Below, piece by piece: positions 3 to 6,000 of a stretch of 64,000 nt of DNA. The notes under the pieces are model-generated. The model was not told the origin of the DNA. It was given only the letters and a program-made list of their open reading frames with translations, and searched no databases. Every line of letters begins with the position of its first letter. Position 1 is the first letter of the stretch. The DNA comes from Candidatus Nanoarchaeia archaeon. Lineage in GTDB: Archaea > Nanobdellota > Nanobdellia > Pacearchaeales > GW2011-AR1. Position numbers and translations under genes: made by a program. The stretch spans positions 1,927 through 65,926 of the forward strand of contig JAQUKY010000006.1 in assembly GCA_028718805.1 (NCBI GenBank), written 5' to 3'.

Positions 3-3000
3 TTGCCTACCCCCATAGCCTCTGAATATGTTGCCCCGGTTGTGCCCGTGAGTTTGGAAGATAAAAATCTCCCTATAGTAGAAGAATCTTTGATGCAGTA
101 TCAGGCTGTTGTTGGAAAACCTGTTAAATGGAAAAAACAGTTTACAATAGGAGGAGTTTCTGGATTTTCAGTTGAACTTCCAAAAGGTTCTGAGAAGATA
201 ACTATAAAAACAATAATAAGCGGAAAGGAAGAGGATATTACAAGTATCTCAAGTATAAATAAAAAGAGAAACCTCTTGATTTTTGGTGAAAGGGCTGTTG
301 AAGTTAGTATTAATACTAATTCAATAACAGGAAATGTAATTGTGAATAATCAAGAACAAGTTTTATACAGAGTTGAATATGAAACGCCTGCTCCAGCAAA
401 AAGTGAAGAATTGGTTGAAGGAGGAAAGAGGATTTTAATTAGGGGCCCTGAAGATGTTCATTATAAAAATATATTGTCTTTTACAGAGCTGCCTAAAGAA
501 CTTAATCAAAATGAATTAGGAAAATTTGAATTATACCAGATAAAAAATGGAAATAGGGAAATTGTTAAGTTTACAGCTTATGACACAAATGAAAATGGAT
601 TGTATAATTATATTGAGTGGATAATTCCTGAATTAAGTGAAACTGAATTCTTATGGATAATTAAAACAACAAAAGCAGAACATCTGGATGGGAATAAGGA
701 TTTTATTTCTGATATTTACCCCCAAATTCAGGCTTTGGATGGAAACTGGAGTGAAACTGTTAACAATGATGAATATGTCAGAGTTACATTTGAGCAGAAT
801 TTAACAAATAAAAATGACATTACAATTTATGCAAGAGCAACCGATGAAGAAAATGCCGAAATTGAGGTTTACAAGCAAGGGGATAGTAATTTAATCACTA
901 AATTTGAAAATATAAGTAATGAAAACTGGTATAAAGTTTATTTAATTAATCTAAGCGAAGGGGAAAGCTATAATGTTTTTGACTTGAAAATTCTTGGAAG
1001 TGCTGAGTTTGATTATATTGTTGACCCCTTTTTTGATAATTCCTCGCTTAAGCAGATTTTGTATGATTGTGGAAACCTTAATACAACAAATGCTGTTTAT
1101 ACTTTAAATCAGTCTTTAATAAATAAGGCAGGATCATGTTTAGTTGTTAAGGCAAATAACATAACTATCAATTTAAATGGATATGCTGTTGATGGGGATG
1201 ACTCTGGATCAGATCAGGGGGTTAGAAGTGCTTATAATTACACGACTATAAAAAATGGAACAATTACTGATTTTAGACATGGAATTTATCTTGAATCAAA
1301 TTCAAATAATTCTGTAAGTAATATAATAACAGATTCAAACACTTATGGAATTCTTCTTAGTTTTAGTTTAAATAATGTTTTTAGAGACAGCAGTTTTGCT
1401 AATTCTGTATCAAATGATGTTTGGCTTATGTACTCTTCAAATAACAATACCTTCTTAAATGTGAGCTACAACTTAAACAAAGAGAGTGTTCAGGGAGGTT
1501 ATTTGATCAGAAACTGGTATTATCAGGCAAATGTAAGTTATCAAGGGATGCCTGTTTCAGGAGCAGATTTATCTGTTTATAATAATAGCTATCCTGCAGG
1601 ATGGCAGTTTAATCTTACTTCAAATTCTGCTGGATTGACAAACATAATAGAAATAATTGATTATGTTAGTAGTAGTGGGACAATAAGAAATTATTATTCT
1701 AATTATACAATTAATGTTGTGAATGGAATCTTAAACGAAAGCCACAATCTGAATGTTACTGAAAAATCTTTACAGAGCGGTTTTGGAGGATTAATTTTTG
1801 ATGAAATCAATTTTTTGGGGGATACAATTTCTCCTTTTATTAATTTCACTTCTCCAACTCCTGCAAATGGAAGCACATGGAATTATTCTTGGCTGCCTGT
1901 CAATGTTTCTGCTTATGATGATATTACATACAATAACAATATCTCAACATTTATTGATTTTGATAATTCCTTGATTGGATGGTGGAGAATGGATGATTAT
2001 AATGATTCTACAAAAACAGTTTATGATTATACAGGAAGAAACAATGGAACAGTTTATGGAAATGCTACCCAGACAGATGGAAAATTAGGAAAAGGGATGA
2101 AGTTTGATGGCTTTAATGTTTCGAGTAACGATAATGATTTTATCAATTGTAAAAATGATAGCAGTTTGAATTTAAAAACTGGAAGCTGGGGTGCCTGGGT
2201 TAAATTAAACTCAAAAATGCTAGGAAATATTGGGGAAAGGATTATATTTAAGGAATCAACAGGCTCGCCAGGGTCTAATGGAATTTATGAATTGTTTTAT
2301 TGGAAAGATAAAAATAGATTTAGGTCAGAAGCAGTTGTTTCTGGAGTAAGATATATAACAGAAAGTTCTTCAAGTGTTAACCTCGGGGAGTGGTATTATT
2401 TAGTTTCTACTTATGATGGAGAAATTTTAAAATTATATGTTAATGGTGTGAATGTAGGTAATAATGAAACTCCAAGCGGGAATATTGATAGTAGCTTAGG
2501 TCCATTAATCATAGGCTCATCCTTAGGACAACCTGATATGGCTCCTTTTAACGGCACAATAGATGATGTTATGATATTTAACAGAAGCTTAAGTGCAGAA
2601 GAAATCTCTGCTTTATATGCAAATACTTCTTCTAAGTATTTATTTAATAACTTCACTGACTTAGCTTTTGGAAACCATACATTTAAAGCTTATGTTCAGG
2701 ATACTTTTGGGAATGTGAACTGGACCGAGAAAAGAAGTTTGGCGATAAGTACAATTAATGTATCCATTTCATACCCTGTGCAATTTGCAATTTTTCAAAG
2801 ACACAACTCAATTACCGGAGAGATTCCAATTTATGGAACATATAGTGGAACTCCTGCATCAATAGAAGCGAGTTTTAATGGAGGCAGTTATGTTACTATA
2901 AACTCTAGTCCTTCTGGAGGAATATTCAGCGGAAAATTAAATGCCTCTCTTGGACAAGGCAAACTGATTATCAGATTTTCCAATAACCCCTCTATAAACT

Positions 3001-6000
3001 CATCAGTATCAAATATAGGAATTGGAGATGTTTTTGTTATTGGGGGGCAATCAAATGCTGAGGGTTGTGGTTCATACCAGAGCACGCTTAATTCTTCAGA
3101 TAATTTCAATGCAACTGTTTACAGGGAGGATGGTGCATGGAAACTGGCAAATGACCCTACTGATTCAGACCCTTGTCTTGGTAATGGTTCTGTGTGGCCA
3201 AAGATTGCTGACTATATAATTCAAAACCAGAGTATACCTGTGGCATTTATAACTGTGGCAGATGGTGGAACAAGTATTCTTCAATGGCAAAAAGGTCAAA
3301 CCCAATACGAGAATATGATAAATCAAGTCAGAAAAGCTACAAACGGAACAATGAGGGTAAAGACTCTGCTATTTTTTCAGGGAGAAACAGATGCAAAGAC
3401 AGATACGGGGGTAAGGGGGAATTATAATTATTACAAATCAAACCTGACAAAAATGGCAAATGATTTCATTAATGATACAGAGATAGCAACAACAGTAATA
3501 GCTGGACAGATTGATAGAAGCTATTCCTCTTGGACCAGAACGACTGTGGATAATATCAGAAAGGCACAACAGGATTTATGGAATGAAGATAACAATATTT
3601 CAGCAGGACCAGTAACCTATGACATCACTCAAACAGATGTTATGGTAGTGCATTTTAATACAAATGATGAGATAACGGCATTTGCAAATAGATGGTGGGC
3701 TTCAGTTGCAAATGTTATCTATGGTGTTGGGGATGGGAGGGGTCCTATACTAAAGAATATAACTTTTGGTGGTGGCAATAATAATCTTATCTTAAGCTTT
3801 GATGAGTCTTCTCTCCCCCTTTTAATTAAAAATTGGAATGGAACAATCTCATTAAAGGCTCAGGGATTTAGGATTGTAGATGGCTCTGTTGTACTAGACG
3901 ACAATAATATAACAAGTGCAGTGGTTATAAATAACAACCAGATTCAGATTAATTTTTCAACTAATATCTCATTAAATGCAAAAGTATCTTTAGGAAGCTA
4001 TACTGATGGCTACAATAAAAACATAATAAGAGATAACAGCTCTTTCTCGCTTCCTGCAGAGGCATTTTTGGATTTCCCCCTTTTAGATACATTCCTTCCT
4101 TCAATAAATTTCACTTCTCCAACTCCTGCAAATGGAAGCACATGGAATTATTCTTGGCTGCCTGTCAATGTTTCTGCATCTGACGTTGGAAGAGGGGATA
4201 ACAATATCTCAACATTTATTGATTTTGATAATTCCTTAGTTGGATGGTGGAGAATGGATGATTATAATGATTCTACAAAAACAGTTTATGATTATACAGG
4301 AAGAAACAATGGAACAGTTTATGGAAATGCTACCCAGACAGATGGAAAATTAGGAAAAGGGATGAAGTTTGATGGGAACAGTAGTTATATTAATACGACA
4401 ATGATTAATTTCCCCTCAGGAAACGCAAGTAGGACTGTTTCTCTTTGGCTTAAATGGTATCCTGATTCCAGTGTCTATGATGTACTTTTTGGCTACGGAA
4501 GCAGTTCATCAGGGCTTGAATTATTTGGCGCTTTTATGGAACCTTCAGGGAACTTGCGTTTTTGGTGCAATTATATGAATGTTTCTGATAATTATTATAC
4601 TGGTATCAATATTCCAGTCGGAAACTGGATATATTTAACATTTACTTATAATGGAACAGATATTAAAATATACAGGAATGGAGTATTACAAAATACAAAA
4701 ACAAAACTTCTAAATACTGTGCTTGTAAAATCAGCAATAGGTATAAACTCCTTTGTTGCTCTACATCCTTTTAACGGCACAATAGATGATGTTATGATAT
4801 TTAACAGAAGCTTAAGTGCAGAAGAAATCTCTGCTTTATATGCAAATACTTCTTCTAAGTATTTATTTAATAACTTCACTGACTTAGCTTTTGGAAACCA
4901 TACATTTAAAGCTTATGTTCAGGATACTTTTGGGAATGTGAACTGGACCGAGAAAAGAAATGTTTTTGTTAATGTCAGCATTACAGCTCTTCGAATAATC
5001 TGGGTTCAGAATCTATCTAATGTGACCGGAAATCCTGGAGATTTAAGAAATGTAAGTATTAACTTTAGTGTTTATGACGCAGGTGGCTTTGATGATTTAA
5101 ATGATTCAAGTGCAAGAGCAAATTTCACAAGAAATAATTTTGTAAGAAACTCTGCGAGCTGTTCGAGAATTGCAGGGGAGAGCTATGGTAGTTATGCAAA
5201 CTATACCTGTTATGTTGAGATGTGGTATTATGATCAAGGAGGGATGTGGGATGTAAGTGTTTCAATTGCAGACAAATCTGGAACATGGGCTGTTAATACT
5301 AGCAGTTTCCTGTACGAGTTCCTGTATTCTTTTAACATGACTCCTGATTATGTAAACTGGAGCGATATTCAGATTGGAGATGTTGATGAACCTGCAGATA
5401 ATAACATGACAATAAGCAATCTTGGAAATGCAAACATAATAAATATAAGTATTAATGCAAGCAGGTTAAATGGAACAGGCAGCTATCCTGCTGATTTTAT
5501 TCCTGCTGCTAATTTCTCATTCAGCAATTTAAGCTATAATTCGTGTAATTTAGGAGCAGGAGCCATAAGCTTAATTGAAGACCAAAATGTTTCTTTTAGA
5601 TTATTTATAAACTATTCTGACAGCTTTAATTATGCCTATGCAAATAACAGCATAGGATTTTGTTTGAAAGGGCTTCCTGCTGGCATTCATGCACAGGAAT
5701 ATAAAACAGGAGATGAAAAGAAATGGGAGATTAATGCAGTTTTTGAATTCTTTATTTCCATGAAATATGCTCTTCTTGTTGCTGCAATTGTTGTTAAAAA
5801 TAAAAGAAAAAAGAAAAACAAATTGAGCGAAGCGGAATTACTGAAATTAAATTCTAAGCTAAAGGAAAAATATAATATAAGCATTAGCGAGATATTAAAG
5901 GAGATAGAAGAGGAAAAAGCTAAAAAAGAAATACAAATACCAATTCTAATATTTGAAAGTAGACTAGGACCTGCAGAAGCATTATGCAAGTACTTAAAAG

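Follow-up and report, generated by a model that had tools for sequence, protein, structure and literature searches.

Near-identical flanks around diverged cores in two LamG modules of a giant DPANN surface protein, a candidate for gene conversion confined to the domain frame

Architecture of the locus

The window, which is the whole stretch of 64,000 nucleotides analysed here from contig JAQUKY010000006.1 of Candidatus Nanoarchaeia archaeon, opens inside a gene for a giant surface protein whose start ATG lies at contig C6:1452, 475 nt upstream of the window, and whose 2,256-aa product has an identical entry on record (P0002). The protein is formed by an N-terminal membrane anchor, a domain here called X, a NosD-like beta-helix, LamG module 1, a SASA esterase, LamG module 2, an Ig-like region, a C-terminal membrane segment and a cytoplasmic HTH tail, in this order. 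Each LamG module is divided into a flank A, a core and a flank B, and the features used below are the following.

1..6296, + strand: giant surface protein gene, 2,256 aa (ORF list, translation, Pfam)
657..1027, + strand: X domain, about 120 aa (genome self-BLAST and gene-to-gene BLAST)
1842..2110, + strand: flank A, copy 1, ending at the KFDG motif (identity map)
2111..2542, + strand: core 1, 432 nt and 144 aa, central strands and loops of module 1 (Pfam Laminin_G_3, E 3.7e-26)
2543..2736, + strand: flank B, copy 1 (identity map)
3027..3665, + strand: SASA-type SGNH carbohydrate esterase domain, between both LamG modules (Pfam PF03629, E 8.1e-29)
4107..4375, + strand: flank A, copy 2 (identity map)
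4376..4765, + strand: core 2, 390 nt and 130 aa (Pfam Laminin_G_3, E 3.8e-23)
4766..4959, + strand: flank B, copy 2 (identity map)
49924..50646, + strand: RadA recombinase gene (PF08423, 318 bits; C6:51850-52572)

The esterase domain scores 101.3 bits against PF03629 (cut-off 24.8), and its translation contains the putative catalytic motifs GGQSNAEG, with the GQSN serine, and D..VVHF, with the DxxH, which align with the GQSNAE and D.LHF motifs of the homologs P0012, P0021 and P0025. The profile together with the Ser and Asp-x-x-His motifs points to a member of the SASA / SGNH esterases. The order LamG-SASA-LamG is also found in P0012 and P0021, with 32% identity across 94-99% of the region. 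A Pfam search found no family for the X domain.

Both LamG modules match Laminin_G_3 (PF13385) with scores of 92.5 and 82.8 bits (cut-off 27.6), and the whole protein matches this profile in two stretches (E 5.3e-47). The AlphaFold models of the modules (pLDDT 92.5 and 91.0, pTM 0.92 and 0.90) are all-beta and adopt one jelly-roll fold, whose best Foldseek matches are lectin-like jelly-roll domains (probability 1.00, TM 0.5-0.78), a likeness at the level of the fold only, given the 14-21% identity. Carbohydrate binding is a putative function of the modules. DSSP analysis of the model indicates that flank A covers two N-terminal strands belonging to a split Ig-like frame together with strands one to five of the LamG jelly roll (strands 19-26, 35-41, 45-55, 60-63, 70-73, 77-81 and 84-90), and that flank B covers the last LamG strand (FNGTIDDVMIFNR; strand 238-247), a short helix (253-259) and the three strands that complete the Ig-like frame on its C-terminal side (265-272, 282-288 and 293-295).

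The similarity between core 1 and core 2 is at the noise floor at the DNA level and amounts to 21% identity at the amino acid level, which is the background among the 10 LamG modules of the genome. The original prediction had taken the two cores to be unrelated; as both lie within Laminin_G_3 matches and give the same jelly-roll models, they are instead homologous but saturated, with the same fold. Across the family the column entropy is 3.0 bits in the core versus 1.1-2.1 bits in the flanks, and the core is the hypervariable part of the LamG family.

Identity map and codon usage of the flanks

A repeat search paired 1821-2110 with 4086-4375 (290 nt, 93%, spacing 2265) and 2543-2736 with 4766-4959 (194 nt, 100%, spacing 2223). 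The prediction that A would be nearly identical and B identical is borne out by the identity map, with 14 mismatches in 269 nt between the A copies (94.8% identity) and 194 of 194 nt identical between the B copies. In the coordinates of copy 1, the stretch just 5' of A (1821-1841) is homologous with 14 of 21 positions identical and 7 mismatches, and is followed by 71 nt without a mismatch (1842-1912), an island of 20 nt that holds 12 of the 14 mismatches (1913-1932; 8/20 identical), a further stretch without mismatches (1933-1972), two mismatches at 1973-1974 and finally 136 nt without any (1975-2110). The last 176 nt of A therefore differ at 2 positions and B at none, and the identity reaches within 1 nt of both core borders and continues to the 3' end of the module. 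Both spacings are divisible by three (755 and 741 codons) and both copies of the module share one frame of one ORF, so that recombination between the A copies or between the B copies would delete the intervening region in frame, as had been predicted. Among the 137 within-gene pairs that we examined, the frame identity of this gene is the most extreme (A 94%, B 100%).

The identity extends to synonymous sites, another part of the original prediction that holds: at conserved residues the same codon is used at 62 of 62 positions in B and 73 of 78 in A, versus 19 of 32 in the core (Fisher test of flank against core, p = 1e-7 for B and 4e-5 for A), and the family background of same-codon use is 0.57, 0.60 and 0.47 for B, A and core, respectively. 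This codon evidence dates the flanks as recently copied and the cores as anciently diverged. A mosaic of saturated cores and of flanks that agree down to their synonymous sites requires recombination. The flanks of module 2 group with those of module 1 (90-100% aa), and the nearest relative of core 2 in the genome is the core of a C-terminal LamG in ORF C3:76573-78069, at 42% aa identity versus 21% for core 1. Because its core is closest to another paralog and its flanks to module 1, module 2 is a chimera. Both the excess of identity at the synonymous level and the incongruence between segments, by which ectopic gene conversion or concerted evolution is recognised, can thus be read from the sequence of this locus.

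Searches in the genome and in other assemblies

When A, B and both cores were compared by BLASTN with the 1.18-Mb assembly, further A/B copies, for which the original prediction had proposed a search, came down to one A/B-like paralog on contig C3 besides the two copies of this gene. This is an ordinary paralog at 74-78% nt identity inside another long ORF, a value that represents the normal paralog divergence for these flanks. BLASTN recovered no second copy of core 1 or core 2 in the 1.18-Mb genome, which is 87% complete. All 10 LamG modules lie within long ORFs and no silent or promoterless donor cassettes were found in the assembly, whose completeness of 87% leaves room for an unassembled archive. 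A search of 5.8 billion proteins and scans of genome and metagenome contigs yielded no strain variant, no deletion form and no form with a different core; the only close strain found, the second MAG GCA_028713455.1, has the same layout, with 1 SNP over 11,222 nt.

A different part of the same gene, the X domain at 657-1027, is 98-99% identical in DNA to C3:99402-99772, which belongs to another giant surface gene with a different domain order; the gene-to-gene BLAST matches are 371 nt at 97.8% and 353 nt at 99.4%. This match represents a second recent recombination patch within the gene. A further recent patch in the surface genes of this genome lies on contig C3 itself, where 104225-104653 matches 97530-97961 at 94%; both patches speak for the conversion reading discussed below. 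The assembly was made with k = 127 and contig ends overlap by exactly 127 nt; the identical runs of 136 and 194 nt exceed this k, and a few true differences in B may have been smoothed. Contig C2 carries a diversity-generating retroelement (DGR) with a reverse transcriptase, a template repeat and three variable repeats, in which 37 of 39 mismatches fall at template adenines.

LamG modules across DPANN archaea

We surveyed 166 LamG modules from 91 DPANN loci. The best flank match lies within the same locus for 52 of 116 modules and the best core match for 3 of 116, and over 4,366 module pairs flank identity and core identity are uncorrelated (rho 0.04); frames and cores have independent histories across DPANN. 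Among the 137 within-locus pairs no core exceeds 69% nt identity (the noise floor has a median of 59.7 and a maximum of 67.2), and at least 80% identity is reached by A in 13 pairs and by B in 14. The same mosaic recurs in DPANN contigs that are unrelated to this one, where A and B differ in age: the 3' part of A is 97.7% and B 92% identical in locus L030, A 94% and B 81% in L018, and A 64% and B 93% in L022, where the same codon is used at 18 of 52 positions in A versus 49 of 58 in B (p = 8e-8).

The ortholog pair L044/L141 is informative in two respects. Three of its four cores have 21-37% aa identity beside flanks of 83-97%, and the fourth has about 76%, which indicates that turnover of cores at the frame boundaries does occur in the family. 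In addition, module 3 of L044, whose core is the one at about 76% aa to L141, has an A flank with only 47-54% identity to the ortholog and 92% nt identity to a neighbour module, a case of flank overwriting that the comparison of orthologs reveals.

Discussion

The reading to which we lean, and which we consider somewhat more probable than all others taken together, is RadA-type gene conversion restricted to the conserved frame. The two LamG modules would be old paralogs within one membrane-anchored, glycan-directed surface protein, each of them built as a concanavalin-A-like jelly roll set within a split Ig-like frame, which the segments A and B make up. Conservation of this frame across the family would have left enough DNA similarity for the copies to pair, and a recent, non-reciprocal intragenic conversion, presumably dependent on RadA, may then have copied one frame onto the other. 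The tracts would have extended as far as the two copies can pair and ended with the homology, namely at the core borders KFDG and PFNG inside and at the edge of the module outside, leaving the diverged cores and one 20-nt loop island unconverted. The outcome would be a SASA-type esterase flanked by two lectin-type modules that share a scaffold and differ in their binding cores. Older homology beside new identity points to conversion tracts, a signature that a fresh duplication would not leave. On the evidence of one genome we infer the direction, with flanks overwritten rather than a core imported, from the 20-nt island, the 74% stretch on the 5' side and the tracts that fill all pairable sequence, which together favour overwriting. 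RadA is the likely responsible enzyme, although it is not specific to this locus. The last 176 nt of A and B are equally young, which under conversion calls for two near-simultaneous tracts or one discontinuous event and which a single core replacement would explain more simply; the turnover of cores seen in L044/L141 could also have happened here.

The original prediction regarded the homogenised flanks as recombination handles for swapping cores. According to such a scheme the modules had recently been made identical by duplication or whole-module conversion, and one core was then replaced through the A and B homology arms by a LamG cassette from another paralog, strain or species, in a population-level shuffling of adhesins. 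Of this proposal, the need for recombination, the chimeric nature of module 2 and the turnover of cores in the family stand. The same young age of A and B, with 0-2 differences, the separate lineage of core 2 from that of its flanks and the lack of correlation between flank and core identities in the survey all fit with it, and the bimodal cores of L044/L141 suggest discrete replacement. The genome, however, offers no donor, as there is no second core copy, the nearest core is at 42% aa and silent cassettes were not found; a variant with another core did not emerge from the proteins or contig collections searched; a diverged donor should have left some of its sequence in the arms, which are identical up to the core borders; and the scheme would have to invoke extra events to account for the 20-nt island as well as for the 74% stretch on the 5' side of A. 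The details of the window favour overwriting of the flanks, and we judge core swapping at this locus to be possible but doubtful. The sequence being a metagenome-assembled genome, a de Bruijn assembler might also have collapsed or mis-threaded similar repeats, all the more as the runs of 136 and 194 nt exceed k, so that threading them required read pairs. This we consider very unlikely, since the esterase segment can be reached only from B and leads only into A, so that the graph logic forces the layout, the 2-nt mismatch and the 20-nt island were kept between the copies rather than simply collapsed, the second MAG agrees over 11.2 kb apart from 1 SNP, and the same mosaic is found in contigs from other assemblers and samples.

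Strong purifying selection on the flanks with very fast evolution of the cores after duplication, without any recombination, would agree with the family-wide entropy values and accounts for the large number of pairs whose flanks reach 60-85% and whose cores do not rise above the noise floor. Selection at the protein level, however, does not hold synonymous sites constant, and here the codons agree throughout B and only in part of the core; the cores, moreover, differ by indels (432 vs 390 nt) and in 79% of their residues, against no synonymous change at all in the flanks. The synonymous-site test refutes this explanation for the window, where we give it hardly any weight, and it is still adequate for moderately similar pairs elsewhere. 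Hypermutation of the cores by a DGR is brought to mind by the element that the genome carries on contig C2, but the targets of that element are three other genes with variable repeats of 81 nt, and the differences between the cores involve their length and all four bases; we attach next to no credence to it. Neither core has a template-like second copy in the genome, which excludes both as DGR targets. A broader conjecture, which we put forward as speculative and rather unlikely, is that in DPANN archaea the frame serves as a conserved arm pair through which lectin cores are exchanged among modules, genes and co-occurring strains by plain homologous recombination, in a recombinase-independent shuffling of adhesin cores at the population level that would set which host surfaces are open to binding by the episymbiont; at this locus it would also allow in-frame switching between a two-lectin form with the esterase and single-lectin forms without it.

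Returning to gene conversion within the frame, the identical direct repeats of 136 and 194 nt are most likely its by-product, and yet they are substrates from which the esterase region could be lost in frame. What operates here is ordinary recombination of one sister module with the other, as is common among proteins of this family, with no sign of an active adhesin-switching device. Attachment to host cells is the lifestyle generally assumed for DPANN archaea. Obvious candidates for host recognition are their giant, lectin-rich surface proteins, whose diversification has hardly been studied. The locus offers a clean and datable case in which recombination keeps the scaffold uniform and the binding core is free to differ. 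If the identical arms also drive core exchange or loss of the esterase in populations, genome plasticity would be linked to host range, a putative relevance that the original prediction had proposed. The mechanism, partial gene conversion of paralogous segments, is an ordinary one in a less ordinary place.

In Neisseria pilE/pilS, Borrelia vlsE and Mycoplasma MgPa, variable segments are flanked by conserved ones at which recombination takes place, and these systems need an archive of promoterless donor cassettes. The present gene resembles them in having conserved segments around a variable segment of a surface protein. A system of the pilE/pilS type was rejected, as the 87%-complete genome contains no such donor archive. 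Closer in its action is Helicobacter pylori babA/babB/babC, surface adhesins of lectin type in which homologous recombination between copies gives rise to chimeras (PMC4552749). The bab copies are separate genes at different loci of a bacterium, with exchange observed in isolates and during infection (PMC4552749), whereas here two domains of one archaeal gene share the frame alone, and no exchange or variant was seen. DNA-identical, direct, in-frame repeats in a surface-protein gene are likewise present in Periscope-type proteins and H. pylori cagY, where recombination yields shorter or longer proteins in frame (PMC8201768, PMC2194252). Those genes contain many whole repeats arranged in tandem, and variation in their length is documented (PMC8201768, PMC2194252), unlike the two non-adjacent copies 2.2 kb apart described here, with identity in the flanks only and cores at the noise floor. 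With two copies and identity restricted to the flanks, the locus does not qualify as a Periscope-type tandem array.

Partial gene conversion of prokaryotic paralogs, for example methanogen mtrA, provides a precedent for non-reciprocal homogenisation of parts of genes in archaea, and in such cases paralogs of one genome resemble each other more closely than orthologs from different genomes do (PMC4632066, PMC6053082). As described there, mtrA and the surveyed cases concern housekeeping genes in which conversion has persisted for long and affects entire genes or large portions of them (PMC4632066, PMC6053082); here, in contrast to those cases, the two ends of a nested domain would have been converted and its middle never. 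In family and architecture, the protein belongs with the multi-LamG giant surface proteins of DPANN (Laminin_G_3, 'LamG domain-containing protein').

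Organisation of the surface protein and its repeats

All the repeats lie in a single open reading frame of 2,256 aa, which begins at C6:1452, 475 nt before the window, and runs to window position 6296. The protein is composed of an N-terminal membrane helix, an X domain, a NosD/beta-helix region (a weak match, E 3e-4, below cut-off), a first LamG domain, a SASA-type domain, a second LamG domain and, within window 5730-6296, a C-terminal membrane segment followed by a tail matching a Sigma70_r4-like helix-turn-helix (Pfam, 29.5 bits). The SASA-type domain (PF03629, 101 bits) is a predicted esterase in which the GQSN and DxxH motifs are readable. 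The recurrence of the LamG-SASA-LamG layout in P0012 and P0021, two other archaeal giant proteins with 32% identity, suggests that the placing of an esterase between two lectins is conserved and is no local accident; the nearest SASA relative, P0010 (50%), is devoid of a second LamG domain.

A repeat search over window 1-9000 gave two families of direct repeats, located where the original prediction had placed them, and a base-by-base comparison demonstrated that flank A is itself a mosaic.

Repeats and cores of the two LamG modules (window positions; parts of flank A in copy 1 coordinates)
1821-2110 and 4086-4375: repeat family A, 290 nt, 93% identity, spacing 2265
1821-1841: 5' stretch of A, homologous, 14/21 identical
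1842-1912: identical run of A, 71 nt
1913-1932: island in A, 20 nt with 12 mismatches
1933-1972: identical run of A
1973-1974: two mismatches in A
1975-2110: identical run of A, 136 nt
2543-2736 and 4766-4959: repeat family B, 194 nt, 100% identity (194/194), spacing 2223
between A and B: core1, 432 nt, and core2, 390 nt

Beyond B the sequences of the two copies are unrelated. The predicted geometry, in which A-A or B-B recombination would delete the esterase region in frame, is correct, since each spacing is divisible by three and all copies share one reading frame; no deletion form was found in the genome contigs, metagenome contigs or protein collection searched. Switching of the shufflon or invertase type was rejected, the A and B repeats being direct and the only inverted repeat in the 9 kb being one of 30 nt with a 70% match.

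The cores had been described as unrelated, a view that does not survive analysis of the fold. Each module matches Laminin_G_3 separately (92.5 and 82.8 bits) and gives a confident AlphaFold model (pLDDT 92.5 and 91.0), so the cores are homologous; Foldseek matched the models to lectin-like jelly-roll domains, a similarity confined to the fold (14-21% identity). Mapping of the segments on the DSSP strings assigns to flank A two Ig-like frame strands and the first five LamG strands, ending at the KFDG motif, to the core the central strands and loops, and to flank B the final strand of LamG (FNGTIDDVMIFNR) together with a short helix and three further Ig-like strands. The models thus point to a LamG domain nested in a split frame made of A and B. 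Mean column entropy in a 111-sequence alignment is 1.1-2.1 bits for the frame versus 3.0 bits for the core.

Reliability of the assembly

Contig ends overlap by 127 nt, from which an assembler k of 127 follows, and the identical runs of 136 and 194 nt are longer than this value. The layout with two A and two B copies is nevertheless forced, because B leads into the esterase segment and A follows it; the 2-nt and 20-nt differences between the A copies were preserved by the assembler. A search for contigs encoding the giant protein returned one further MAG, GCA_028713455.1, a public MAG of the same population as the source. Its contig JAQTOG010000005.1, of 40.8 kb (103 kb for C6), shares its starting base with C6 and carries the same layout, with one SNP (C6:3011, A versus T) over positions 1-11222.

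Age and ancestry of flanks and cores

The genome (a 1.18 Mb MAG of a DPANN archaeon, 18 contigs, 31-32% GC) contains about 10 LamG modules. In their identity matrix core1 and core2 share 21% of residues, the level of any random pair, and the nearest core to core2 is that of ORF C3:76573-78069 (42% aa). The flanks of module 2 are nearest to those of module 1 (90% aa for A and 100% for B), followed by the paralog C3:96227-101158 (63% and 73%). With flanks nearest to module 1 and a core nearest to another paralog, module 2 is chimeric. Synonymous positions were examined at the residues that both copies have in common, Met and Trp left out. Codons agreed at 73/78 positions in A and 62/62 in B versus 19/32 in the core (Fisher p of 4e-5 and 1e-7, respectively), the family background being 0.60, 0.57 and 0.47 for A, B and core; the flanks of the third paralog display ordinary divergence (74-78% nt). 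Selection alone was rejected on this test, as protein-level selection cannot give such codon identity, and the codon counts show that the mosaic requires recombination.

Recent sequence patches are common to several surface-protein genes of this genome. The X domain (window 657-1027, about 120 aa, without a Pfam family) has 98-99% DNA identity to C3:99402-99772, part of a surface gene of 1,644 aa on a different contig. The domain order of that gene is X, Cys-rich, Ig, LamG and beta-helix versus X, beta-helix and LamG in the window gene; a recent whole-domain transfer or conversion is the probable origin. Two other patches, each of 94%, join different long surface-protein ORFs (C3:104225-104653 with C3:97530-97961, and C7:74064-74205 with C7:65656-65797). 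A full-length RadA gene is present in the window at 49924-50646. Separately, we observed a family of repeats, each about 170 nt long and 96-100% identical, with at least 11 members, all outside the window (C2:87474-87643, five on C7, two on C15, C10:14284-14450 and C6:94024-94196). No checked copy lies within an ORF of at least 150 aa, and the family may be MITE-like or regulatory.

Donors, variants and a diversity-generating retroelement

Further copies of A and B, to which the original prediction had looked, were sought in the genome and none was found; the genome also holds no silent cassette and no second copy of either core. Among genome and metagenome contigs the search for related loci as strain variants gave nothing nearer than 49% aa, and in a homologous-protein search over the 1,046-aa region the sole match above 50% identity was the protein itself. 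No core class common to several genomes was found, the best foreign matches to core1 and core2 being at about 32% aa. A classical, complete-looking DGR is present at C2:97474-102445.

Elements of the DGR
C2:101619-102445: reverse transcriptase, PF00078, 52.8 bits, read in two frames
C2:101301-101381: template repeat
3' ends of ORFs C2:97474, 98326 and 100931: three variable repeats, 81 nt each

The variable repeats carry 12, 15 and 12 mismatches, 37 of the 39 at template adenines. We rejected this element as the origin of the core diversity because it lies elsewhere and has its own targets, and the LamG cores have no second copy.

Frames and cores in other loci

We surveyed 166 Ig-framed LamG modules from 91 loci on genome and metagenome contigs. 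Among 137 within-locus pairs the highest core identity was 69.3% nt, against a noise floor, taken from reversed cores, of 59.7 (median) and 67.2 (maximum); identity of at least 80% was reached by A in 13 pairs and by B in 14, and the window pair (A 94%, B 100%) is the extreme case. The best protein match lay in the same locus for the flanks of 52 of 116 modules and for the cores of 3. Core identity was flat at 26-27% whether flank identity was 30% or 90% (Spearman rho 0.04, 4,366 pairs).

Mosaics of the window type, with raised synonymous flank identity, occur in several independent contigs (loci L030, L018, L022, L131, L054 and L147). Flank identities are 97.7% (3' part of A) and 92% (B) in L030, 94% (A) and 81% (B) in L018, and 64% (A) and 93% (B) in L022, where the same codon is used at 18/52 positions in A versus 49/58 in B (p = 8e-8). 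Judged by these identities, A and B of one pair appear clearly different in age in L022 and L018, which fits separate conversion tracts limited to the flanks, and not duplication followed by core replacement.

The decoupling of frame and core can be followed in a compact natural experiment, the pair L044 (a Woesearchaeota MAG contig) and L141 (metagenome contig Ga0268280_1000011). Their multi-LamG genes are orthologs that align collinearly, with 55% identity, along about 1,390 aa. Their flanks are 83-97% identical and the cores of three of the four modules are at the noise floor (21-37%); in the remaining module core identity is about 76%, with values of 67-87% over windows of 30 residues, and the A flank of this module in L044 has 47-54% identity to L141 but 92% nt to the neighbouring L044 module. 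This pattern indicates two processes: a module can have its flanks overwritten by a neighbour and still keep its core, and between related genomes most cores undergo turnover within flanks that persist. Because of this turnover the core-swapping idea of the original prediction remains viable at the level of the whole family.

Discussion

The mosaic is real, well-dated and the product of ordinary homologous recombination. As to the event, we consider gene conversion of the frame, in which the flanks were overwritten, somewhat the more probable explanation. Older homologous sequence is found beside and within the identical tracts (the island and the 21 nt on the 5' side), identity extends over all the pairable sequence and ends at most 1 nt from both core borders, and the genome holds no core2 donor; these same features speak against replacement of the core by an imported one, an alternative favoured by the equal youth of A and B, and to which we give a distinctly lower, though appreciable, probability. 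Assembly artefact, selection only and the DGR, taken jointly, are improbable. The predicted adhesin-shuffling function is a hypothesis.

Frame/core decoupling appears to be general in DPANN LamG surface proteins, and the window is its cleanest example, which is the main ground of its moderate interest. Unusually high variability is known for the cell-surface proteins of Nanoarchaeota (PMC6142677); the library searched yielded no published account of conversion limited to the frame in LamG proteins of archaea. The in-frame direct repeats of the window resemble those of cagY (PMC2194252) and of Periscope proteins (PMC8201768). By its defining features the window is not a silent-cassette system, a Periscope array or a DGR target, and it does have those of partial gene conversion. 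In logic the nearest analogue is the H. pylori bab family, in which the ends are near-identical, the binding middle is divergent and chimeras arise by gene conversion (PMC4552749).
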